From the IMG/VR virus record IMGVR_UViG_2529293142_000033: DNA of 54,512 nucleotides. One strand, written 5' to 3'. This DNA comes from a virus. Taxonomy: Duplodnaviria > Heunggongvirae > Uroviricota > Caudoviricetes. The number at the start of each line of letters is the position of its first letter. Position 1 is the stretch's first letter. Below the pieces are notes generated by a model. That model was not told the DNA's origin. It made no database searches and was given only the letters and a program-made list of their open reading frames with translations. The position numbers were made by a program, and so were the translations under genes. Positions 1 to 54,512 of this stretch are shown piece after piece.

Positions 1-708
1 ATGTGGGTCAATAAGTATATTGACGATTGCACTGATGAGGATTTAAACGATCGTGACTTTATTGCATCAGTTGTTGACCGGGCTATTTTTCATTTCGCGA
101 TTAATAGTATATGTAATCCTGGGGATAATAAAGATGCGACTCCCATTGAACAATGTACTTTTGATGTAGAAACTAAGAATGGCCTTCCCTCCACGGTTCA
201 GCTATTTTATGAGGAATCTAAGGATAATGAACCTTTAGCGAATATACATTTTCAAGCAATAGGTTCTGGTTTTTTAACGTTTGTTAATGCCTGCCAGGAA
301 CATGATGACAACAGCTTAAAATTATTTGCTTCGCTGTTAATTTCACTTTCATATTCTAGTGCCTACGCAGATTTATCAGAAACAGTGTATATTAATGAAA
401 ATAATGAGAGCTACCTGAAAGCTCAGTTTGAAAAATTATCTCAACGTGATATGAAGAAGTACCTGGGAGAGATGAAGCGTCTGGCTGATGGGGGAGAAAT
501 GAATTTTGATGGCTATCTGGATAAGATGTCACATCTGGTGAATGAAGGAACGCTCGATCCTGATATTTTAAGCAAAATGAGAGATGCTGCACCACAATTA
601 ATTAGCTTCGCGAAGTCGTTTGACCCAACCTCAAAGGAAGAGATTAAAATACTTACAGACACTTCTAAATTAATTTATGATTTGTTCGGGGTTAAATCGG
701 AGAAATAA
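1..708 (+). CDS. yjbM: uncharacterized host protein, YjbM-like (gene immediately upstream of dusA)
   Basis: 235-aa ORF beginning at window position 1; size and position upstream of dusA match the E. coli yjbL-yjbM-dusA neighbourhood (recalled synteny, not searched). Confidence 0.55.
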   Translation: MWVNKYIDDCTDEDLNDRDFIASVVDRAIFHFAINSICNPGDNKDATPIEQCTFDVETKNGLPSTVQLFYEESKDNEPLANIHFQAIGSGFLTFVNACQEHDDNSLKLFASLLISLSYSSAYADLSETVYINENNESYLKAQFEKLSQRDMKKYLGEMKRLADGGEMNFDGYLDKMSHLVNEGTLDPDILSKMRDAAPQLISFAKSFDPTSKEEIKILTDTSKLIYDLFGVKSEK

Positions 709-749
709 TATGTGAAGTTCTTCGATAGTATGGAAGGCATTATATAAAA

Positions 750-778
750 GGACCCAATATTTATTGGGTTCTTTTTTC
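750..778 (+). terminator. rho-independent terminator after yjbM-like gene
   Basis: hairpin acccaata..tattgggt followed by T-run. Confidence 0.5.
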
Positions 779-1070
779 TCTATCAATGCTATTAGCAGGG
801 AGATATATCACCAGAGTTTAATGTGTGATTTTTTATTTATCGTCGAACCTGGATTGTTTATCATTGGCCTTAACAAAGTTAACGGCTAATAAGATTATTT
901 CCATCACTTCGTGAGAGCTTCATGCCTTGAGAGGATCTCAATTTTCTTTTGCAATGAGACAGGCGCTTCCTGTTGTTATGGTATAGTACCCCGCTATTGA
1001 GCCTCCTGAATAGTGATGCTGAATAACATAACCCCATGATATATCGATAAAATAATCTCTACATTTGAAA

Positions 1071-1193
1071 ATGCACGGTAATTCTGAAATGCAAAAAATC
1101 AACCAAACCAGCGCAATGCCTGAAAAAACTGACGTTCACTGGAGTGGTCGGTTTAGCGTTGCACCAATGCTCGATAGGATGTACCGTTGTTGA
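1071..1193 (+). pseudogene. displaced original 5' end of dusA (attL side); first ~34 codons then unrelated sequence and stop
   Basis: translates MHGNSEMQKINQTSAMPEKTDVHWSGRFSVAPMLD then diverges; about 75-80 percent nt identity to the 5' end of the intact dusA at 53475; shared core atgctcga at 1167-1174. Confidence 0.8.
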
Positions 1194-1318
1194 AAAACAA
1201 GTAGTTATACACTCTGTGGGAGCCTATTGGGAACTCGGCGTTTTCATTTCAAGGTGTAATCCATACGCGGCTTAAGAATGAGATATAATGCGACTTTTAG
1301 TGTTCCGCTTGAGAGGCC

Positions 1319-1855
1319 ATGATGCTTACCCTGGACGAGATAGGTCAATCAGTACGTAACAATATCCAGTTGATTATTGATCATGTCGGCTTACCTCTTG
1401 CTGTTGGTCCGCTCAGTGATGATGATTACAAGATTCTGTGTGGTGGCTATGGTGAGCTTGAATGGGACTATGCGTTAAGTACCTATGGCAACTCCAGAGA
1501 AAAGTATGAGTTCTGCATAAAACTTGTTCAGCAAGGTCGGGTTCAGGGAATACCATCAGGAGCAGCAATTTGTGTTTATGGGGTTGAAGAAAACATCTTT
1601 CGTATCCATATGATCGAAAGGTTTTCTAGAGAAGATGAATCTCACCCATTGAAAGGGCGCATGGTTTTACTCACTCTTATGAGTGCTTTTATATTTTGTA
1701 AAGCTGTTGAATGTAAAGTTGTCCACATTGTAGAGCCAGTACCAGAACTGGTGCAGTATTACGAGTCTTTTGGTTTCCGCATGGAACAGTGCGGTTATGT
1801 GATGTCGGCAGTCATTGATGAGCTGCAGGATATCTTTCTTAAATTTGCTCAGTAG
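1319..1855 (+). CDS. hypothetical protein, possible GNAT-fold acetyltransferase-like (att-proximal cargo)
   Basis: 178-aa ORF; C-terminal segment (FRIHMIERF..VVHIVEP..LVQYYESFGF) resembles GNAT beta4-alpha3-beta5-alpha4 pattern without canonical QxxGxG; putative -10 tataat about 30 nt upstream. Confidence 0.5.
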   Translation: MMLTLDEIGQSVRNNIQLIIDHVGLPLAVGPLSDDDYKILCGGYGELEWDYALSTYGNSREKYEFCIKLVQQGRVQGIPSGAAICVYGVEENIFRIHMIERFSREDESHPLKGRMVLLTLMSAFIFCKAVECKVVHIVEPVPELVQYYESFGFRMEQCGYVMSAVIDELQDIFLKFAQ

Positions 1856-2051
1856 GTATAGACGAGAAGGGTCTACAAATTGTAGGATACCCGTCCAGAT
1901 TACCTTAAAGGTACATCTATGGCAGTCGTTTTGTGCTTAAACTACTAAGAAACGATGTCACCAATCGACATGATCGATTGGCATAAGTTAGCGAAACAAG
2001 CTAGCTTTAAAGAAAGGGTTAGAGACGCCTTTACTGTCTCGGGAGTTTTCT

Positions 2052-2225
2052 ATGAAAGATCAAAAAGCAACCAAGCCACAGGTTAAGTTCGACACAATGA
2101 AAGCATTCGCAGGTATGGGTGCTGCTGTTGAAGTTCTGATGAAGGCTGCTCCTAATGCGTTCACTCACGCTACTGTCTCTGGTAAAGAGCAGCAGGGTAA
2201 GCTTCGTCGTCGCAAAGCAGCATGA
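2052..2225 (+). CDS. small hypothetical protein (57 aa), Ala/Lys-rich
   Basis: ATG preceded by gggag RBS; followed immediately by strong terminator; below the 60-aa ORF-track cutoff. Confidence 0.4.
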   Translation: MKDQKATKPQVKFDTMKAFAGMGAAVEVLMKAAPNAFTHATVSGKEQQGKLRRRKAA

Positions 2226-2244
2226 TCATAGCTGGTGCTTTTTG

Positions 2245-2272
2245 AAAACCCGCCTTCAGGCGGGTTTTTTCT
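2245..2272. terminator. bidirectional rho-independent terminator
   Basis: aacccgcc ttca ggcgggtt hairpin with T-run on plus strand and partial U-run on minus strand; sits between convergent genes. Confidence 0.7.
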
Positions 2273-2581
2273 TTAGTGATGTTCTTTGCCCTTCTGTTTG
2301 ACTGTTCTGACCTGTTCCCACTCGATACGTCCTTCTTCTCGTCTTTTGTCTATGTATTCCGCAAGATCCTGAATATTGATGCAACGTTTTGCTTTTTGTG
2401 ATGTGCCGATGCGATATGTTGGAATGGGCAACTTACAAGCGTTTGCTTTTGCTTCTGCCGTGGCTGGACTCATACCAAAGTACTTTTGGCTAACTGCTGA
2501 GAGTTCAATGTTTGGGGTATTGAATTCAGCCATCAGTAAAAACAAGGTGTTCATAATTTTCTCCATCAAAACCGGCTGCAC
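2273..2581 (-). CDS. PrtN-like / excisionase-like small DNA-binding regulator
   Basis: 102-aa protein with KYFG..PATAE..LPIPTYRIG..IQDLAEYID pattern typical of pyocin-activator PrtN family. Confidence 0.65.
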   Translation of the reverse strand: MQPVLMEKIMNTLFLLMAEFNTPNIELSAVSQKYFGMSPATAEAKANACKLPIPTYRIGTSQKAKRCINIQDLAEYIDKRREEGRIEWEQVRTVKQKGKEHH

Positions 2582-2590
2582 CCGGGAAAA

Positions 2591-3163
2591 TCATAATTCT
2601 GTGCTGGTGGCAGGAATTAATTTCTGCCAGATAGCTGAAACATATTTGGCCTGATGACGAGCATCAGCCAGGGCGTTGTGCCGTTCGCCATCGAAAGGCA
2701 TGTCCATTTTTGGGTCGAATCCGATGGAACGCCCAAGCGTAACGATCGTGCGTACATCGTGATCATTCCAGTACGCCCATGGGCAGATTTGTCCTGCTCG
2801 TTCATAAGCTCCGCGTAAAATTACGTTGTCGAAGGTGGCCCCGTTACCCCAAACTTTTAAATATTTCGTATTGTCTGCGTGCCGATTAATGAAATGGCTC
2901 AGTTCAGAGAGTGCATCGCTGATCGACAAAGTATCATCAATACAGATTGCAGCTCGTGCTTCAGGGCTTTGTTTCAACCACCACAGGATGGTATCGCCGT
3001 CAGGTGTGGCCCCTTGCTCCATAGCACTGTCCAGGCTGACAACCGTATAGAATTCTTGTCCGATGTCTCCGGTTTCTGGAGTGAAGAACACCGCGCCAAT
3101 GGAAACGATCGGTGCATCCTTATTTTTCCCCATCGTCTCAAGGTCGATCATTAAGTTATTCAT
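2591..3163 (-). CDS. phage 3'-5' exonuclease (DnaQ-like fold)
   Basis: 190 aa; MIDLETMG..IVSIGAV N-terminal exo motif and conserved H/D residues downstream. Confidence 0.7.
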   Translation of the reverse strand: MNNLMIDLETMGKNKDAPIVSIGAVFFTPETGDIGQEFYTVVSLDSAMEQGATPDGDTILWWLKQSPEARAAICIDDTLSISDALSELSHFINRHADNTKYLKVWGNGATFDNVILRGAYERAGQICPWAYWNDHDVRTIVTLGRSIGFDPKMDMPFDGERHNALADARHQAKYVSAIWQKLIPATSTEL

Positions 3164-3474
3164 TACTTCACCTCCTGCGTTTCTTTGCTGCTGTGAATTC
3201 GCCAGTTACCGACGCCTTCCCATTCAAACTGGCGGTTACTAATTCGCGTCCAGCCCCTGCCGAAAAGCAAATCCAGATACCAGTATTTTAAAGTTCTGAT
3301 AATTGCTCTTACAGTTGGTTTGCATCCAGAAGTCTTTGATGCGCAAATAAAGCACCGAGTTATGCTCATGGCTTCTACAAAAGGCCAGATAAACCAAACC
3401 CAGATGCAAAGAGCCACGAACAACATGAGCGCGATGTTAGCCACTAAGCCAGACCAGTACAGATAATTGCTCAT
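3163..3474 (-). CDS. small membrane protein, hypothetical
   Basis: 103-aa ORF with two hydrophobic segments; start overlaps upstream gene stop. Confidence 0.45.
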   Translation of the reverse strand: MSNYLYWSGLVANIALMLFVALCIWVWFIWPFVEAMSITRCFICASKTSGCKPTVRAIIRTLKYWYLDLLFGRGWTRISNRQFEWEGVGNWRIHSSKETQEVK

Positions 3475-7394: not shown

Positions 7395-8068
7395 TCAGGC
7401 TTTAATTTTGTATCTTCTTGGTTTTCCTGAGAAAATAACTGTACCAATGATAGAGCAATTACCGTTTATCTTAATGTAAGGCTCAGGCCAGTTGGGGTTT
7501 AATGCTTTGAGATAACGCTGTGTCCCGTCTTCTATCAACCTTTTGAAGGTGGTTTCACCTGTATCGTGCATCAATGCAATAACGTCATCGCCGTGGCAGG
7601 CTGGTACTTCTGGATCGACAAAAATCATGTCTCCCGGACGGTACTCATCAATCATTGAATCACCAATCACCCTCAATATATAAGTCATTTCGCCACAGGG
7701 TACAGGGCAGGGATACGTTTCTGTTGTGCTCAAATCAACCTCAGAATAGCCAACTTCTTTCCATGCTCCGGCCTGTACCCATGATATGACAGGGACTAAC
7801 GTTATTTTTTATTAGTGATTGAAACATCAGGTTTTTTTGTGATGTTCGTTGTCTGGTGTTCTTGATCAAGCCATCCGACAGGCAGGTCGAAACATTTTTC
7901 GATGTGCCGTGCCATGCTGTCACCGATATTTTTAGTAGCGCCATCCCCCATAAACCTGCTGGTCTGGGTAGGCTCGCGATCAATCATGGTGGCAAAGGAT
8001 GAATTTCCGCCAACACCATCTCTCAGTTTTCTGGCGTTAGACCGCCGGATGTCATGGATTGTTTTCAT
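7395..8068 (-). pseudogene. CI-like repressor (N-terminal HTH plus C-terminal S24 LexA-type peptidase domain), reading frame broken by -1 shift at T6/A6 tract 7805-7810
   Basis: N-terminal ORF 7802-8068 (MKTIHDIRRSNARKL..) ends at the A-run; C-terminal frame from 7808 reads KITLVPVISWVQAGAWKE..GDSM (Ala-Gly autocleavage site and S24 motif); one extra A would fuse them. Confidence 0.75.
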
Positions 8069-23822: not shown

Positions 23823-24480
23823 CCTTAACGACCTTCACAGACAGCTTCAGGGGATGCAGAAGCAGGTGCGTTTTGCCACTGCGCGCGCCATCACCTCAAC
23901 CGTGAGGAAAATTGAAGCGGCAGAGAAGGAAAACCTTCGCCGGAAGCTGGATAACCCGACGCCGTTCACTGTGAACTCGGTGCGCTCAAAAGGGGCCACA
24001 CGGGACAATCTGACCGGGCGGGTGTTCATCATGGATACCGCCGTGCCTTACCTTGAACCCTTTGAGGTGGGCGGGCTGCATTATCTCGGTGAGGGGCAGA
24101 AAGCTGTACTGAACCCGAAAAATATCCGGCTGAACAAATACGGCAACCTGCCAAAGGCAAAACTGCAACAGCTGAAGGCCAGACCGGATGTTTTCATCGG
24201 TAAGGTGATGAACAACGATGGTGAGGCCGTTGGTGGCGTCTGGCAGCGTAAGAAAGCGAAAAAAGTGGCAAAAACCAGGAAGCGGAGAAAACGCTCCCCC
24301 AATGGCACACGCGCTCCCCGCAAAAAAAACCGTCCACCAAAGCTGTTGATACGTTTTGGTGATGCACTGCCGGTCACGCCGGTACTGGGTTATCAGGAAC
24401 TGGCCCATGACATGGCATCGCGTCTCATGAAGACGGAGCTGAATGTGGCGCTTGAACAGGCTTTAAAGACGGCGAAGTGA
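23815..24480 (+). CDS. hypothetical protein with highly basic Lys/Arg-rich segment
   Basis: 221-aa ORF (GTG start); segment RKKAKKVAKTRKRRKRSPNGTRAPRKKNRPPK. Confidence 0.5.
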   Translation: MADLNDLHRQLQGMQKQVRFATARAITSTVRKIEAAEKENLRRKLDNPTPFTVNSVRSKGATRDNLTGRVFIMDTAVPYLEPFEVGGLHYLGEGQKAVLNPKNIRLNKYGNLPKAKLQQLKARPDVFIGKVMNNDGEAVGGVWQRKKAKKVAKTRKRRKRSPNGTRAPRKKNRPPKLLIRFGDALPVTPVLGYQELAHDMASRLMKTELNVALEQALKTAK

Positions 24481-24582
24481 TGCAGACAGTACAGCAGGTG
24501 GGTAACGGGTCCTTCCTGAGCGGGTTATTGCACGGGCATTGCGCGAGCGCGGTGTTTCGCCAGCTATAAATTTTCAATTTTG

Positions 24583-24765
24583 CGTCCCAATGTCCCATTG
24601 TTAATTTTTGTTTCATTCCTTGCTGTGTCTGGCTTAAGTGGTGTTTTGACCTGGGTTTTGTGTCCCAAAAAATGGGACATTTTGATGTCCCAATGTCCCA
24701 ATGTCCCAATGTCCCAATGTCCCATTTCATGTCCCATCAATGGGACATTCGTTTTCGATGTCCCG
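24583..24765. repeat. cos-region repeat cluster (candidate small-terminase binding sites)
   Basis: at least ten direct and inverted copies of the octamer ATGTCCCA / TGGGACAT, including four tandem copies at 24686-24717, immediately upstream of the small terminase start. Confidence 0.6.
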
Positions 24766-24783
24766 GTTTTCGGAGGTGATTCA

Positions 24784-25379
24784 GTGAGCTTAATGACAGT
24801 CGGGCAGTACGCCGAACATGCCGGGGTGAACCGGAAAACAATTTCACGATGGATCAAGGCCGGTACGTTTGTTGTCATGGACGGAAAAAAAATTGACGTG
24901 GAGGCGACAGATAAAAATCTGAAGCGTTTTCGTGACAGCGCCGATCCGCGTGCGGCAAACGGAAAAAAAACAGAGTCGCCAGAAAAGCTAGGGAATCGCA
25001 GTCCGGCACGGTGGAAGGGTTCGAGCAACGGGCAAGAGATGTGTTTGATTCGCTCACCTCCGGGGATGTTGTTATCCGTCCACTGGAAGAGTCCCGCGCA
25101 ATGAAAGAACACTTTTTTGCGGAGATGGCGCGTCTGGAATATGAGGATAAGGACGGAAAGCTGTTTCCGCTGAAACTCGTTACGGAACAGGTCGCTGCTG
25201 AATACACGCGAGTGAGGACGCGCCTTGTTGCCCTTGCGCCTGAGCATGGTCCCCGTCTGCGGGCGCTGGCGGGAATGACGGACGATCAGGGCTTCACGGC
25301 AGCGCTGCAGGAGTTGGTATACGAGGCACTGGATGAACTTGCATTTGAGAAAAGGGAAATCGAAGAAGACCCTTCTTAA
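24784..25379 (+). CDS. terminase small subunit (Nu1-like), with apparent -1 frameshift at A8 tract 24962-24969
   Basis: GTG start after ggagg; N-terminal HTH GQYAEHAGVNRKTISRWIKAG in one frame; protein-like C-terminal 120 aa continues in the -1 frame (ORF 25011-25379); one extra A restores a single ~198-aa ORF. Confidence 0.7.
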
Positions 25380-27312
25380 GAAAGCGCTGATCCAGTTGCA
25401 ACGACATCTTGCATCACCGCAGCCGATGTCCTTAAGCCAGTGGGCCAACACCTTCGCTGTACTGTCCCGTGAGACCAGTGCCCAGACGGGGAAATTCCGC
25501 TCCTATCCCTATCAGGACGGCATGATGGATGCCATCACAGACCCGTCGGTCACGTATGTGTCAGTGATGAAATCAGCCCGTGTGGGATACACGAAAATTC
25601 TTGACCATGTGGTGGGCTATTACCTGGCACATGATCCGTCCCCCATCCTGGTGGTTCAGCCGAGGGTGGAGGACGCCGAAGACTACAGTAAAACCGAAAT
25701 TGCCCCGATGCTGCGCGACACGCCGGTGCTGGCAGCCATCAGCGGCGACCCGAAGGCAAAAAACAGCAACCAGACCATTCTTCGCAAAACCTTTTCCAAC
25801 GGCGCAAACCTCACGCTGGTCGGGGCCAACTCCCCCGGCGGGTTTCGCCGTATCACATGCCGCATCATCCTTTTTGATGAGGTGGACGGGTATCCGGCAG
25901 GGGGCGCAGGATCCGAAGGGGATCAGATTGCGCTGGGAACAAAACGTTCCGAAACCTTCTGGAACCGCAAGATTGTACTCGGCTCCACGCCAACCGTGAA
26001 AGGCGTGAGCCGTATTGAAAAAGCCTGGCTGGAAAGCGATCAGCGCCGCTACTTCGTGCCCTGTCCTCACTGCGGTGAATATCAGGTGCTGGAGTGGGGC
26101 AGCAAAAGCACCCCTTACGGCATCAAATGGGAAAAGGACAGCGAAGGTAACGGGCTGCCGGAGACCGCTTACTACCTGTGCCGCCACCACGGCTGTGTGA
26201 TTGTGCACAGTGAACTGCCCGGGATGCTGGCAAAAGGCGAATGGCGCGCCGGTGCACCATTCAGGGGACATGCCGGTTTTCATATCTGGACGGGCTACAG
26301 CCCGCACTCAAATGCCTCCTGGCCGAATCTGGTCGCCGAGTGGCTGAGGGTGAAGGACGATCCGCTGATGCGCCAGACATTCATCAATACCACGCTGGGC
26401 GAGCCTTACGAGGATGCAGGCGAGTTTGCGATGAGTGAGCAGCGGCTGATTGCCCGCGTTGAGGTCTGGGGGGCGGAGGTGCCGGAGGGCGTGCTCCTGC
26501 TCACCGCCGGGGTGGATACACAGGATGACCGCTTTGAAATCACCGTTCTCGGCTGGGGCATGAACGAAGAGTGCTGGGTGATTGCGCATGACGTGATTTT
26601 TGGTGACCTGGAAACAGAAGAGCCGTGGGAGCGCCTTGACGCGTATCTGAAACAGGTCTGGCGGCGGGCTGACGGTTTCGGGCTGACGCTCTCGGCGGTC
26701 TGTCATGACTCGGGCGGTCATCACACCAACAAAGTGTACGAGTTCTCGAAGGCGCGTATCGGGCGTCGTATCTGGGCGACAAAAGGTGAGTCCGCCACTG
26801 GCGGCAAACGTAACCCTGTCTGGCCGACGCGTGTCGTTTCGTCCCGCAACCGGAAATCCTTCCGCCCCGTCATTCTGGGGGTGAACTCCGCGAAGGACGA
26901 CATCAGGCACCGGCTGCATATTGAGCCGGATCCGGCAGGCGCGCCGACCGCAGGCTGTATCCATTTTCCGTCGTTTCTGGATCTGCACTATTTCAGTCAG
27001 CTGCTCTCTGAGCGTCTGGTGCGTAAGGAGAGCGGCGGGCAGGTGTACCGTGTCTGGGAGTTGTCTTCCGGGCGGGCGAATGAGGCGCTGGACTGCATGG
27101 TGTACGGTTACGCGGCCCTGAAGGGGCTGCTGCATCACGGCCTGAAACTGAACCGTCTGGCTGAACGGACGGCGCAGGATCTGTCGTTTATGGCGCCGCC
27201 TCCCGCGCAGCCGGAAGAAAAAATCAGTTTAAGTATGCCGGGCGCAAAAGCACCGGAGACACCCCGTAAGAAAATACCGCTGCATATGAGGCTTGCAGGA
27301 GTGAGACGATGA
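25333..27312 (+). CDS. terminase large subunit (lambda gpA-like)
   Basis: VMKSARVGYTK, FINTTLGEPYE and NEALDCMVYGYAA segments match lambda gpA pattern; start may be an internal Met (for example 25426). Confidence 0.9.
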   Translation: MNLHLRKGKSKKTLLKKALIQLQRHLASPQPMSLSQWANTFAVLSRETSAQTGKFRSYPYQDGMMDAITDPSVTYVSVMKSARVGYTKILDHVVGYYLAHDPSPILVVQPRVEDAEDYSKTEIAPMLRDTPVLAAISGDPKAKNSNQTILRKTFSNGANLTLVGANSPGGFRRITCRIILFDEVDGYPAGGAGSEGDQIALGTKRSETFWNRKIVLGSTPTVKGVSRIEKAWLESDQRRYFVPCPHCGEYQVLEWGSKSTPYGIKWEKDSEGNGLPETAYYLCRHHGCVIVHSELPGMLAKGEWRAGAPFRGHAGFHIWTGYSPHSNASWPNLVAEWLRVKDDPLMRQTFINTTLGEPYEDAGEFAMSEQRLIARVEVWGAEVPEGVLLLTAGVDTQDDRFEITVLGWGMNEECWVIAHDVIFGDLETEEPWERLDAYLKQVWRRADGFGLTLSAVCHDSGGHHTNKVYEFSKARIGRRIWATKGESATGGKRNPVWPTRVVSSRNRKSFRPVILGVNSAKDDIRHRLHIEPDPAGAPTAGCIHFPSFLDLHYFSQLLSERLVRKESGGQVYRVWELSSGRANEALDCMVYGYAALKGLLHHGLKLNRLAERTAQDLSFMAPPPAQPEEKISLSMPGAKAPETPRKKIPLHMRLAGVRR

Positions 27313-27560
27313 TGAATACCCCCGGCGTGTTTGCCGGAATGTCAAAAGAACAACTGAAGGCGGCACTGAATGAAGCTCAGGCGGCCTATATTGAGCTGCT
27401 TTCAGGGCGGCGTGGCGTGAGTTTCTCCTATGCACAGGGGGACGGCACGCGCACCGTGACTTATTCACAGGCCAGCAGTGCGGATTTGCTGGCGCTGATC
27501 GCGACGCTCCAGCGGGCGCTGGGGATAAGGACGAGAAGGTCCCTGAGCGTGCGTTACTGA
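27309..27560 (+). CDS. head-tail joining protein (gpW-like)
   Basis: 83 aa, position between terminase and portal, resembles lambda W. Confidence 0.7.
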   Translation: MMNTPGVFAGMSKEQLKAALNEAQAAYIELLSGRRGVSFSYAQGDGTRTVTYSQASSADLLALIATLQRALGIRTRRSLSVRY

Positions 27561-27568
27561 GGTGAGCG

Positions 27569-29209
27569 ATGATAGTCGATAAAAATGGCAGACCTTTTCC
27601 GCAACAGACGGAAAAAAAACGCGCACTGAATGACAGCGGGCGGATCCCCTATGACTCTGCCGGTTTCTCGCACGGTTCAGTGGCGGGCTGGAACCCGGTA
27701 CTGTGGTCACCGGACAATGAAGTGAATATCTGGCGCAACCGTATGGTTGCCAGAATGCGCGACCTTGTCCGCAATGACGGCTGGGCGAATGGCAGTATCA
27801 CCCGCCTGCTGGACAATGCCATGGGGGTGGTTTTTCGCCCGAGGATGAAGCCTGACTACCGGATGCTGGCAGAGATGACCGGCAACCGGGCATTTGATGC
27901 AGACTGGGCGGATGAGTACGGGCGTTGTGTGGAAGCGCACTGGCGCAACTGGGCCGGTGATGCCGGGTGTTACTGCGACCTTGAGCGCAGACAGACCCTG
28001 CCACAGCTTTTCCGGCTGGCATTCCGCCACAAGATGGTCGACGGCGATGCGCTGGCGGTCATCCACTGGCGACCGGACAGAATAGCCCCCGGTCGCGGGC
28101 GCTACGGTACGGTGGTGCAGGTGATTGACCCTGACCGGCTGAGTAACCCGAACGATGCGTTTGACCAGCCGCATATCCGTGGCGGTGTGGAAATTGACGC
28201 GGACGGGGTGCCGGTGGCCTATCACATCCGGTCCGCACACATGGGGGACTGGTGGAGCGGCAGTGACACGATGCACTGGGAACGCGTGCCGCGTGAAACG
28301 TCGTGGGGAAGGCCGGTGGTGGTGCATGACTTTGATCATGACCGTGCTGGCCAGCACCGTGGTGTCGGAATTCTCAATCCCGTGGTTCAGCGTCTGAAAA
28401 TGCTCATCAAGTACGACCAGGTGGAGCTGGAAGCCGCCATCATCAATGCCATGTTCGGTTTTTTCATCACGTCGCCCTATGACCCGAAACTGACAGAAGA
28501 TCTGATGAGTGACGCGGAGGTGATTAATGGCTACCAGGATGCGCGCATGAAGTATCACGATACTAACCGGATTTCGATGTCGGGCGTGCGTATTCCCATC
28601 ACGTTCCCCGGCGAAGAGCCAAAAGCCGTGAGCGCCGCCCGTCCGGTCAGTAACTTCAAGGAGTTCGAGGGCACAGTGCTCAGGAATATTGCCGCTGCAC
28701 TGGGGCTGTCCACCCAGCAGGTGACACAGGACTGGTCGGACGTGAACTACAGCTCTGCCCGTGCGGCACTGCTTGAGGCGTGGAAAACACTGACCCGCCG
28801 TCGTGATGAGTTTGCGGTCGGCTTTGCCCAGCCGGTACTGACGGCCTTTCTGGAAGAGCTGCACGAAGAAGAGGATTTGCCGCTGCCTGCCAGTGCACCG
28901 GATTTTCTGGCGGCGCGGGCCGCTTACACCCGTGCCCAGTGGATGGGGCCGGGGCGCGGCTGGGTGGATCCGGTCGCGGAGAAAAAAGGGGCCATTCTGG
29001 CGATGGAGGCCGGCATGTCCACGCTGGAAATCGAAGTGGCCGAGAACGTGGGGGAAGATTTCGAGGATATTCTCGACCAGCGGGCGCGTGAAGAGCGGGC
29101 CTTTAAGGAAAGAGGCCTGACACCGCCTTCCTGGTTTCAGGCAGAGCAGTTTGCCCCCACACCGACGGGGAGCGCCCCGGCAGAGCCGAAGGAGCCTGAT
29201 GTTTCATGA
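27569..29209 (+). CDS. portal protein (lambda gpB-like)
   Basis: 546 aa; DLVRNDGWANG and other blocks parallel lambda B. Confidence 0.9.
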   Translation: MIVDKNGRPFPQQTEKKRALNDSGRIPYDSAGFSHGSVAGWNPVLWSPDNEVNIWRNRMVARMRDLVRNDGWANGSITRLLDNAMGVVFRPRMKPDYRMLAEMTGNRAFDADWADEYGRCVEAHWRNWAGDAGCYCDLERRQTLPQLFRLAFRHKMVDGDALAVIHWRPDRIAPGRGRYGTVVQVIDPDRLSNPNDAFDQPHIRGGVEIDADGVPVAYHIRSAHMGDWWSGSDTMHWERVPRETSWGRPVVVHDFDHDRAGQHRGVGILNPVVQRLKMLIKYDQVELEAAIINAMFGFFITSPYDPKLTEDLMSDAEVINGYQDARMKYHDTNRISMSGVRIPITFPGEEPKAVSAARPVSNFKEFEGTVLRNIAAALGLSTQQVTQDWSDVNYSSARAALLEAWKTLTRRRDEFAVGFAQPVLTAFLEELHEEEDLPLPASAPDFLAARAAYTRAQWMGPGRGWVDPVAEKKGAILAMEAGMSTLEIEVAENVGEDFEDILDQRAREERAFKERGLTPPSWFQAEQFAPTPTGSAPAEPKEPDVS

Positions 29210-51130: not shown

Positions 51131-52026
51131 TTTTTTGGGGTGTGGTAATTATAACTATCAACTTCCTCAATGGAATATCTTGGCATTAAAAATAGGATGT
51201 TTTTATTAAATTTTGGCCGCTGTGGTTAAAGTAAAGGATGAGTTAATATCCAGTCCATCCTTAATGGGAGTGATTAGTTCACCATCAGATAAATCGTAAG
51301 TGGTGTTTTTGGGGGCTCGTCAAGCTCAAAAATGGCCGGGAGAAAATTGGATATAACTACAGGGTAGGACTTACGAAAGTGACAGAGTTGCTATAGGAAT
51401 ATAAAAACATTCATGGTGAACTGGGGTCTGAAAAGTCACATGCCCTCATTAGAAATGGTAGCATTTTAAGTGTGGGAATGAAAAACAGAAGAGCAAAAAT
51501 CATCCATAATATGTAGAATTAGATCATGTCAACCCATATTTAGTCCTTGTTCGATAGCAAGCCTCATTGACTTCGCCGTTATCACCAGATATGGCGAGTT
51601 CTTTGTAAGTGGGAGAGCTATTTTTAGATGTCGTGCAGCAGACATTTTTGCCGAGCGCTTCATCCGGAGCGATGAACCGTAGATTTTTCTGGTTGGAGCC
51701 GATCATATGTGATGCTATGGGGATATTTTTTCAGTAGGCTAGGTGGGAATTGTACCGTTAATATTATAGGCTTCTACCCAGTAAAAAGAGGCGAGGAAAC
51801 ATGCACGACAGGTGCTACACGTCATGCATAGATTGGGATTACTCATGACTAGCCACAGCTATAGGTCGTTAAGAGATTCGCAGCACGCTGTATGCAATAA
51901 CGTGCTGCGGCTGGCTGGTGAACTTTCGATAGTGCGAGTATTGAATGATTTCCAGCCGTTACCGATTTTACGTGTTTATTATTGAACAAACCACTCGTCA
52001 GCAGACTCCCTGGTATCTTTCAGAGT

Positions 52027-52227
52027 CTACTGAACAAATGTTTTTGCAGAATCCTTATCTGCGGTGCGTGTAACAGAAAGCTCATCATTGCTGGTGGCTT
52101 TTACGATCACTTCTACATCGTCATAACGCTTACTGATGCGCCGAGTTAATTCTTCCTTTAACGCATCCACAGCACTGTTTGGCATTTTAGTCATTTTCTC
52201 TTTGGCTATGCAGATATCAATACGCAT
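52027..52227 (-). CDS. DinI-like protein
   Basis: 66 aa, [26 protein letters not shown] resembles DinI. Confidence 0.6.
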
Positions 52228-52288
52228 AAAAATCCCTCCACGCTGTGTTTATATACAGTGTTATTTTTAACTGTGTAAATAAACAGTA

Positions 52289-53386
52289 TCAAGAGGTCTT
52301 GTTTCTGCTCCTTTGGAGTTCTTCAAAACGATTATGTAAAGATTTCGGATACAGTTCGGTATATACCTGCCATAGCACGTTTAATGAACGATGCCCTGTA
52401 ACCTGAGCGACTTCCTCAATACTAAAACCAGCCTCAAATAAGCGACTTGCCCCTTCCCTACGCAAATCATGGTATCGCAGATCTTTAATACCTAATTTGC
52501 TTCTTACCCTCTGAAATCCTGCGGTAACAGAAGTGCTGTTATATGGAAAAATGAATTCTGATTTTTGGGGTTGTTGCTGGACGATATCCCAGGCTTCCCC
52601 AAGCAAGGCAACTTTCATATGGTTGCCTTCCTTTTTACGTGGATCTTTCCTATCTCTTACTAGTATAGATTTTTGTTCCTGGTCGAGATCTTCCCATCGT
52701 AACCGGCATACTTCTCCAATTCGCATACAGGACCACACAGAAAATTTGAGGATATCAACGAACGGAATTTTTGAGCATTTATGAGTAGATCGTTGTTGAA
52801 GGCCTTCAATGAGCATGTCCAGTTCATCAGATGCTGGTCTACGATTACGACGGTTTGATTTACCAATCAAACCGAGTTTAAGTAGATATGGACGAGCGCT
52901 TTTCGCCGGGTTTGATGTGTAATTGATTCCGTATACAGGTTTTGCCGCATCCAGAACACTGCCAAGATAACTAACATCGTGGCTGACTGTTGCTGGGCCT
53001 GCACCAGCGTTGTTTCTTAGCCTGCAATGTTCAATTACGTCATTTTCTGTCAGTTCAGATAGTTTGATCGCGGAGATGTCGCTATCCATAAGCAGTTCCA
53101 GCACATATCTTTTAGTACGGCCTGCTTTACCTCCGGCATTTGGGTCATTTAAATATTTGTGTAGTAAGTCACGGACTGTAAGTCCGTCAACAGCATTTGA
53201 TGATGGAATGCCATATAGATCTAATTCCATCACTTTCTGTGCGCCCCATGTTTTGGCATGAGCATGTTTAGGGAATGTTTTGCTTTCCCTGTAAGTGATA
53301 ACACCTTTTTCTTTGATAATCACATTACAGCGATAGCGTGGTGTGCCATCGGATTTTAGTCGTTTCTCTATGTTATAGTACGCCAT
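52289..53386 (-). CDS. tyrosine-type site-specific integrase (dusA-associated)
   Basis: 365 aa, C-terminal catalytic region with conserved R..H..R..Y pattern (..DLRYHDLRREGASRLFEAGF..VAQVTGHRSLNVLWQVYTELYP); immediately adjacent and divergent to dusA. Confidence 0.9.
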   Translation of the reverse strand: MAYYNIEKRLKSDGTPRYRCNVIIKEKGVITYRESKTFPKHAHAKTWGAQKVMELDLYGIPSSNAVDGLTVRDLLHKYLNDPNAGGKAGRTKRYVLELLMDSDISAIKLSELTENDVIEHCRLRNNAGAGPATVSHDVSYLGSVLDAAKPVYGINYTSNPAKSARPYLLKLGLIGKSNRRNRRPASDELDMLIEGLQQRSTHKCSKIPFVDILKFSVWSCMRIGEVCRLRWEDLDQEQKSILVRDRKDPRKKEGNHMKVALLGEAWDIVQQQPQKSEFIFPYNSTSVTAGFQRVRSKLGIKDLRYHDLRREGASRLFEAGFSIEEVAQVTGHRSLNVLWQVYTELYPKSLHNRFEELQRSRNKTS

Positions 53387-53474
53387 TACACGACCTCGTT
53401 ATTTCGGGTTCCCATAAAACGTGGGAACCTATGCGGGAACCTAATGCGAGAAAAATAGCCTGAAATGTTCAAAA

Positions 53475-54512
53475 ATGCACGATAATCATGAAACACAAAA
53501 AATTAATCAAACCAGCGTGATGCCGGAAAAAACTGGTGTTTACTGGAATTCTCGGTTTAGCATTGCTCCTATGCTCGACTGGACGGACAGACATTGCCGC
53601 TATTTCTTGCGTCTGCTTTCCCGCAATACGTTGCTGTATACCGAAATGGTGACCACAGGGGCGATTATTCACGGTAAAGGTGATTATCTGGCGTACAGTG
53701 AAGAAGAACATCCGGTAGCGTTGCAACTGGGCGGTAGCGATCCGGCGGCGCTGGCGCAGTGTGCAAAGCTGGCAGAAGCGCGCGGATATGATGAGATCAA
53801 CCTGAATGTCGGCTGCCCGTCTGACCGGGTGCAGAACGGCATGTTTGGTGCGTGTCTGATGGGTAATGCGCAGCTGGTTGCCGACTGTGTGAAAGCGATG
53901 CGCGATGTGGTGTCGATTCCAGTGACGGTGAAAACGCGTATTGGCATCGATGACCAGGACAGCTATGAATTTCTCTGCGATTTCATCAACACTGTTTCCG
54001 GCAAAGGCGAGTGTGAGATGTTTATCATCCACGCACGTAAAGCCTGGCTTTCGGGGTTAAGCCCGAAAGAAAACCGTGAAATCCCGCCGCTCGATTATCC
54101 GCGTGTGTATCAACTGAAGCGTGACTTTCCGCATCTGACAATGTCGATTAACGGTGGTATCAAGTCGCTGGAAGAGGCCAAAGCACACCTGCAACATATG
54201 GATGGCGTGATGGTCGGGCGCGAGGCGTATCAGAATCCGGGTATTCTGGCGGCAGTAGACCGGGAGATCTTTGGTTCCTCGGATACCGATGCCGATCCGG
54301 TGGCGGTAGTGCGCGCCATGTATCCGTACATTGAGCGTGAACTCAGCCAGGGGACGTATCTCGGCCATATTACCCGGCATATGTTGGGCTTGTTCCAGGG
54401 TATTCCTGGCGCGCGGCAGTGGCGGCGTTATTTAAGTGAAAATGCCCATAAAGCGGGTGCAGACATTAATGTGCTGGAACACGCGCTCAAACTGGTGGCG
54501 GATAAGCGTTAA
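53475..54512 (+). CDS. dusA: tRNA-dihydrouridine synthase A, full length with diverged 5' end
   Basis: 345 aa; body matches DusA; first ~34 codons differ from the displaced host fragment at 1071-1174. Confidence 0.9.

Follow-up and report, generated by a model that had tools for sequence, protein, structure and literature searches.

The small terminase gene (terS) in the stretch of DNA analysed here, a prophage-bearing window of 54,512 nucleotides, is one gene that is split between two reading frames at a run of eight A residues; near-identical genes elsewhere carry nine A residues at this position and have an intact frame. The missing A is most likely, at moderate confidence, a homopolymer under-call in an indel-prone read set, the real gene being intact. 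The lesion is either such a sequencing under-call or a private slippage mutation, and is in each case an event of an ordinary, known kind.

The window holds a prophage that sits at dusA in a chromosome of the E. coli group. The flanks (1-3200 and 51680-54512) correspond to the dusA region of E. coli, with an identity of at least 99% to many genomes of this species; at the far end an integrase lies next to dusA. By comparison with a collinear annotated prophage, the window has lambda-type head genes together with a Mu/P2-like contractile-tail module. The head genes stand in the order terS, an overlapping large terminase gene, gpW, and a lambda-type portal, and this order is the same in relatives; Pfam PF05876 and PF20454 were matched on the identical large terminase product in relatives. 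Four tRNA genes (Met-CAT, Arg-TCT, Thr-TGT, and Gly-TCC) are found at 16114-16423, downstream of the antitermination gene; the Met-CAT tRNA is annotated as Ile in a relative and is possibly of the lysidine-modified type. The features of the terS region are as follows.

24575-24765, both orientations: array of (A)TGTCCC(A) octamers, found as repeat families, directly upstream of terS
24772-24776, plus strand: terS ribosome-binding site GGAGG, read directly, 7 nt upstream of GTG 24784
24784-24970, plus strand: N-terminal segment of terS (predicted winged helix-turn-helix and start of the linker), ending in the A run; alternative start ATG 24793
24885-24892, plus strand: first A8 run, in frame, encoding G-K-K-I; A7 in the Logan assemblies of SRR057628 and ERR499274
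24963-24970, plus strand: the lesion, an A8 run that is A9 in intact near-identical genes (L010 compared with window 24738-28379)
24971-25104, plus strand: out-of-frame tail of the N-terminal ORF, 43 non-homologous codons, with the stop at 25102-25104
24971-25379, plus strand: remainder of the terS linker and conserved helical C-terminal domain, in the -1 frame, with stop TAA at 25377-25379
25333-27312, plus strand: intact large terminase gene (gpA ATPase and nuclease, 659 aa), overlapping the end of terS by 47 nt

The GGAGG sequence is followed by two candidate start codons, GTG 24784 and ATG 24793; in relatives the gene callers choose this GTG, and the corresponding intact protein (P0001) begins MSLMTVGQ. 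The N-terminal frame encodes MTVGQYAEHAGVNRKTISRWIKAG... (the helix-turn-helix) and passes through GGA AAA AAA ACA; its product, as read from the start, is MTVGQYAEHAGVNRKTISRWIKAGTFVVMDGKKIDVEATDKNLKRFRDSADPRAANGKK. The 43 codons of the out-of-frame tail gave no profile match in Pfam or PHROG. The -1 frame is open from 24936 (after TGA 24933-24935), has its first start codon at GTG 25011, and encodes a protein-like tail of 122 aa or more; any single-base insertion within 24936-25101 suffices to join the two frames. An uninterrupted frame across both domains is thus absent from the window, where the frames differ by -1 at 24963-24970, and present in the A9 relatives. An earlier note on this DNA had described the helix-turn-helix and the C-terminal part as lying in frames that differ by -1, and this split is real in the sequence, both from the frames as read and from the profile matches given below; the A8 tract that the note placed at 24962-24969 is also present, but one base further on, at 24963-24970.

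The two pieces belong to one protein family. The N-terminal piece matches PHROG 57, "terminase small subunit", at positions 13-76 (E=7.6e-11), the C-terminal piece matches positions 82-178 (E=2.7e-12), and the joined protein matches positions 13-178 of 199 (E=7.4e-26); because the pieces match adjoining parts of a single profile, they are not a chance pair of ORFs. The restored protein has 70 homologues at E<=1e-5 and is 90% identical to annotated E. coli proteins. In an alignment of 32 homologues, from E. coli, Salmonella, Arsenophonus, Xenorhabdus, Enterobacter, Yokenella, and Trabulsiella, the helix-turn-helix and C-terminal domains are fused in one ORF in every case; the linker between them is variable and K/N/G-rich, and the C-terminal part carries the family-invariant motif APEHGPRLR. 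The gene is likewise in a single frame in 45 of 48 full-length loci of other species (one genome per species), the three exceptions being those of Serratia symbiotica and Erwinia tracheiphila and one copy on a Rouxiella plasmid.

These data bear directly on the idea that the locus consists of two separate genes, one for a small helix-turn-helix protein and the other for an independent protein of 122 aa beginning at GTG 25011. Gene callers do call the 122-aa ORF from this GTG in two assemblies with A8; however, 25011 lacks a ribosome-binding site in front of it, the last 43 codons of the N-terminal ORF are free of homology, and the adjoining profile matches and the single ORF of the homologues and of the loci from other species all argue for one gene, so that two genes are scarcely conceivable here. 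An independently translated downstream gene, the alternative against which the earlier note had set its reading, is excluded by the fusion of both domains in 32 of 32 homologues.

The intact allele of terS is found in near-identical relatives. P0001, a protein of 198 aa that is 99% identical to the restored protein and reads ...ANGKKNRVARKARES..., is present in at least 24 public contigs, and the DNA at the run is A9 followed by CAGAGTC in all nine of the loci that were fetched (L006-L013 and L014). One of these loci (L010, from SRR6061347, with the same contig in eight samples) has no mismatch with the window over 24738-28379, and the single gap in the comparison is the missing A. In the A9 allele, GGA AAA AAA AAC is read as G60-K61-K62-N63. 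The earlier note had claimed that one extra A gives a protein of about 198 aa, and P0001 is that protein; the comparison with homologous terminase genes that the note had proposed accordingly comes out in favor of an original A9, near-identical relatives having A9 and an intact frame. Among other collections, IMG/VR contained one matching contig, which reads A9; the phage GenBank collection gave no match, distant mode included, and scanning one genome per species for the exact pattern gave no match either. The only close match in a complete E. coli genome is that of E. coli 'numer 3' (89.7% identity), which has an intact gene of 195 aa with A8 followed by CCGGAG. This sequence had suggested that the lost base might be a C or G just 3' of the run, a candidate that is refuted by A9 followed by CAGAG in the 99-100% identical relatives.

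The small terminase gene is an ordinary single ORF. A conserved helical C-terminal domain follows the predicted winged helix-turn-helix in its product, the two being joined by a lysine-rich, floppy linker. The natural linker run is nine A residues (GGA AAA AAA AAC), and the recording of eight in the data of this strain puts the C-terminal domain in the -1 frame.

The A8 allele has a far narrower distribution. Only two contigs on record, one from SRR057628 and one from ERR499274, carry the 122-aa C-terminal ORF; both have A8 at 24963 and A7 at 24885-24892, a run that is A8 in the window and in all other relatives. The exact N-terminal products of the window (103 or 106 aa, according to the start) are absent among 153 billion gene positions. 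The SRR057628 contigs, of 11,153 and 5,461 bases (16.6 kb), have no mismatch with the window, the sole difference being A7 versus A8 at 24885, and a truncated 88-aa fragment of the immunity repressor is on record in SRR057628 only. Given the zero mismatches and the shared rare frameshift in the repressor gene, SRR057628 is evidently the window's strain; since two assemblies of this strain disagree at 24885, homopolymer length is not reproducible there. ERR499274 additionally lacks a T at 25709, a non-homopolymer site in the large terminase gene, and this stray deletion marks the data set as indel-prone. No mention of either accession was found in searchable papers.

The repressor gene is the second one in the window that appears to be broken by the shortage of a single base.

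7395-8068, minus strand: ymfK-like immunity repressor of the LexA family (S24 peptidase), in two pieces of 88 aa and 112 aa

The window has T6 at 7805-7810 (plus strand; A6 in the coding sequence) versus seven in the intact, 99.8%-identical gene of E. coli 2015C-4136CT1, which agrees with the remark in the earlier note that the repressor requires one extra base in an A/T run. Two other samples with the 112-aa repressor fragment (L018 and L019) have different lesions and are uninformative on the window's strain.

Further runs point the same way. The window is one base short at 24604 (24604-24609; T5 versus T6 in four relatives), at 16706 (16706-16713; T7 versus T8 in close relatives), and at 15785 (T3 versus T4 in close relatives), each of these runs being non-coding or of ambiguous coding status. 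All differences in A/T runs between the window and close relatives are contractions in the window, none of its runs being longer, and this pattern fits a bias of the window's assembly. Under-calling is not general, since relatives share the A8 runs at 24322, 24885, and 27612; the last of these (27612-27619) is the in-frame A8 of the portal gene (ORF 27569-29209) to which the earlier note had drawn attention, and relatives have A8 there as well. In-silico addition or removal of one base at every homopolymer recovered both the repressor and terS, and was otherwise too noisy at gene junctions. The comparison with E. coli 2015C-4136CT1 (49 kb) is partly informative, as this genome has homopolymer frameshifts of its own in the large terminase gene. 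The large terminase of its collinear prophage (L020, 26821-28606) is annotated as 'frameshifted' and has one-base contractions in a C5 and a G6 run, which correspond to window positions 25832 and 26468.

In the preferred reading, an under-call, the read chemistry was presumably flow-based or otherwise homopolymer-prone, hence the A8 would not be in the DNA of the cell and the packaging module of the prophage would be functional. A9 is the wild type, sequence-identical prophages elsewhere are intact, and A8 is confined to the data of one strain; assemblies of that strain disagree at another A run, the contraction bias is uniform, and the other data set with A8 (ERR499274) is indel-prone. A prophage that is otherwise intact but has a truly broken CI-type repressor is, from what is understood of phage biology, not stably maintained, and the implausibility of such a repressor in a maintained prophage makes the companion lesion, and hence the read set, suspect. 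What an under-call explains less readily is the agreement of two read sets from different archives, both of which have A7 at 24885 together with A8 at 24963, and both of which read A8 at 27612 correctly; the recurrence of the A7/A8 pair points to a site-specific systematic error or to real shared mutations, and not to random error. The agreement of three other A8 runs with relatives also counts against under-calling, as does the speed of slippage between A8 and A9, a real mutation that could plausibly outrun substitutions over 3.6 kb.

Genuine inactivation, in which replication slippage shortened A9 to A8 in the prophage of this lineage, is a possible but more tentative explanation. It would leave a helix-turn-helix fragment of 103-106 aa with a junk tail and without the C-terminal domain; the terminase could not assemble on cos, and the prophage would not package DNA. 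E. coli genes avoid long A runs, which are hot spots for replication and transcription slippage (PMC4066793; PMC1088944). The A8 call is identical in three assemblies that represent at least two sequencing runs, and broken copies of this family occur in pseudogene-rich genomes, such as those of Serratia symbiotica and Erwinia tracheiphila. Moreover, the alleles at 24885/24963 are nested, many samples having A8/A9, the window A8/A8, and the two Logan assemblies A7/A8, and this series, together with the deletion in the large terminase gene of ERR499274, has the look of a module that decays step by step once selection on it has ceased. Full-length protein could still be restored to a small percentage by RNA-polymerase slippage or by a -1 ribosomal slip on A_AAA_AAA, which in the zero frame permits perfect re-pairing of tRNA-Lys in the -1 frame; the heptamer and the A8 run could allow incidental rescue of a few percent, which would be a leak and not a design. 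Weighing against a real mutation are the limitation of the allele to the data of one strain, with identical prophages intact in at least eight other samples, the disagreement of same-strain assemblies at another A run, the restriction of homopolymer differences to contractions, and a repressor frameshift that, if real, would be hard for a lysogen to survive. Under-calling and genuine inactivation, the two explanations offered in the earlier note, are those that survive; the comparisons of homologues and assemblies narrow the choice to them.

A third explanation for the A run, which lies where the helix-turn-helix meets the linker, is that it serves programmed recoding or a contingency switch, by -1 ribosomal frameshifting, transcriptional slippage, or reversible DNA slippage. 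Such a device would adjust how much DNA-binding-only fragment is made relative to full-length small terminase, or would turn packaging on or off. The run has the form of a slippery heptamer (X_XXY_YYZ), with GG A_AAA_AAA CA in the zero frame, and a run of A7-A8 occurs at the equivalent (E/G)KK position in 20 of 44 intact loci from other species. A second one-A contraction at the equivalent run is found in Rouxiella badensis, in which several copies of terS (L063, L064, and L071) are present on one plasmid record, pSP2 (CP114059.1, 116 kb); the copies are identical except at the equivalent EKK run, which is A7 in the frameshifted L071 and A8 in its paralogues. Their presence in several copies hints that the long-read assembly is concatemeric.

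Recoding is nevertheless very unlikely, as the run is in frame with the C-terminal domain in every intact homologue, a conserved two-frame architecture is lacking, and close relatives exist without the run (GQKT or GRKT). The preference for AAA over AAG is not significantly stronger in the linker than elsewhere in the gene (73% versus 67%; Fisher p=0.09), and the run results from ordinary codon use for the conserved EKK/GKK motif. Over the 90 nt that follow the run, the minimum free energy (-19.1 kcal/mol) is less favorable than the mean of shuffled sequences (-24.2 kcal/mol, z=+1.71), and 195 of 200 shuffles fold at least as well; the upstream sequence, GCGTGCGGCAAACGG, has no GGAGG or other Shine-Dalgarno-like stimulator, and the run region has no match in Rfam. 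The single-ORF homologues and the lack of a stimulatory RNA structure thus indicate that the site is not one of programmed recoding. For genes that depend on transcriptional slippage, the criterion is a run of at least 9 A/T (8 in some organisms), an indel that is required for the product, and conservation across relatives (PMC1088944); here the run is 8 in the window, and the runs of relatives are in frame and need no slippage. There is just as slight a chance that the A7-A9 run is a tolerated or exploited slippage site, at which A8/A9 changes or RNA slippage toggle or tune the full-length product; were this true, packaging by the prophage would be phase-variable.

An AF2 model built on the 32 homologues has a confident winged helix-turn-helix with a strand pair at residues 1-51 (block pLDDT 82-87), a low-confidence linker at about 52-80 (block pLDDT 51-55), and then a helical C-terminal domain; the A run codes for G60-K61-K62, inside the low-confidence linker. 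Pfam matches to the small terminase are weak, those to HTH_17 (E=0.0014) and MerR_1 (E=0.035) being below the curated cut-offs, and DUF1441 is also matched weakly. Phage_Nu1 (PF07471) gave no Pfam match at E<=1, and a family-profile search of PDB did not match the solved Nu1 domain, 1J9I, and returned only RacA (E=0.55). The top Foldseek matches of the model are Xis, BldC, the terminase DNA-binding domains 7lwr/7lw0, and Nu1 1j9i, none of them at E<=0.001. The description of the domain as "Nu1-like" in the earlier note therefore stands as a fold class, that of the MerR/excisionase-type winged helix, and fails as a family, for which neither PF07471 nor the sequence of 1J9I gave a match; the term is a fair functional analogy, with family membership not demonstrated. 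In public annotation, that of the NCBI pipeline included, members of the PHROG 57 type are called "RNA polymerase subunit sigma-70" (P0002, P0009, P0012, and others) and one is called "cytochrome P450"; given the PHROG 57 match and the gene position, these names look like propagated misnomers.

For annotation, the locus should not be entered as a pair of hypothetical ORFs; it is either a single small terminase gene, to be flagged for a suspected homopolymer error, or a frameshifted pseudogene. A8 alone is insufficient for the prophage to be scored as packaging-defective. The assembly may carry one-base contractions of A/T runs throughout, and because the immunity repressor shows such a contraction, any further gene of this genome that looks like a pseudogene should be viewed with equal caution. 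A real lesion would merely identify one E. coli-group strain with a freshly disabled prophage, which is commonplace.

The DNA directly upstream of terS is organized as a repeat array, in which 10 of the window's 13 ATGTCCC sites fall within 175 bp (24590-24764) and five octamers stand in perfect 8-bp tandem. Near-identical relatives differ in the number of tandem copies (4 or 2, against 5 in the window), an additional GTCCCGGT unit is present in relatives at 24758, and Logan contigs break at the array. By analogy with cosB, the array is probably a recognition region for the small terminase.

Several known systems resemble the terS locus in part. RNA polymerase can add or drop an A in runs of 8-9 A residues and thereby partly restore the frame (PMC1088944; PMC4256274), and the homopolymer frameshifts with leaky rescue in apoB (A8), tssM of Citrobacter rodentium, and the A9/T9 runs of IS elements (PMC1088944; PMC4256274) involve the same one-base indel in a run of 8-9 A. 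Those cases have experimental evidence or a conserved out-of-frame organization, whereas the out-of-frame state of terS is private to the data of one strain and perhaps absent from the DNA. The programmed -1 ribosomal frameshift sites of dnaX and of the IS type share the zero-frame A_AAA_AAA heptamer with the window; in contrast to them, the window has neither a hairpin or pseudoknot after the heptamer nor a Shine-Dalgarno-like element before it, and the shift is not conserved.

The closest likeness is to the PHROG 57 family in prophages of E. coli, Salmonella, Xenorhabdus, Photorhabdus, Arsenophonus, and Serratia, which have the same profile match and the same place before a gpA-type large terminase gene; the window differs from these family members solely in the frame that is broken by one missing A. 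The resemblance to lambda gpNu1 is one of layout and presumed role: an N-terminal winged helix-turn-helix, predicted in the case of terS, is followed by a part for oligomerization and binding of the large terminase, and the gene sits directly between a cluster of repeated DNA elements on its upstream side (compare the R sites of cosB) and a gpA homologue on its downstream side. In structure, gpNu1 (1j9i) ranks 34th in Foldseek, among winged helices of the MerR/Xis type, with a TM of 0.54 on the target, but with E=0.86 the match is not significant; and the repeats upstream of terS, unlike the R sites, are 8-bp (A)TGTCCC(A) units.
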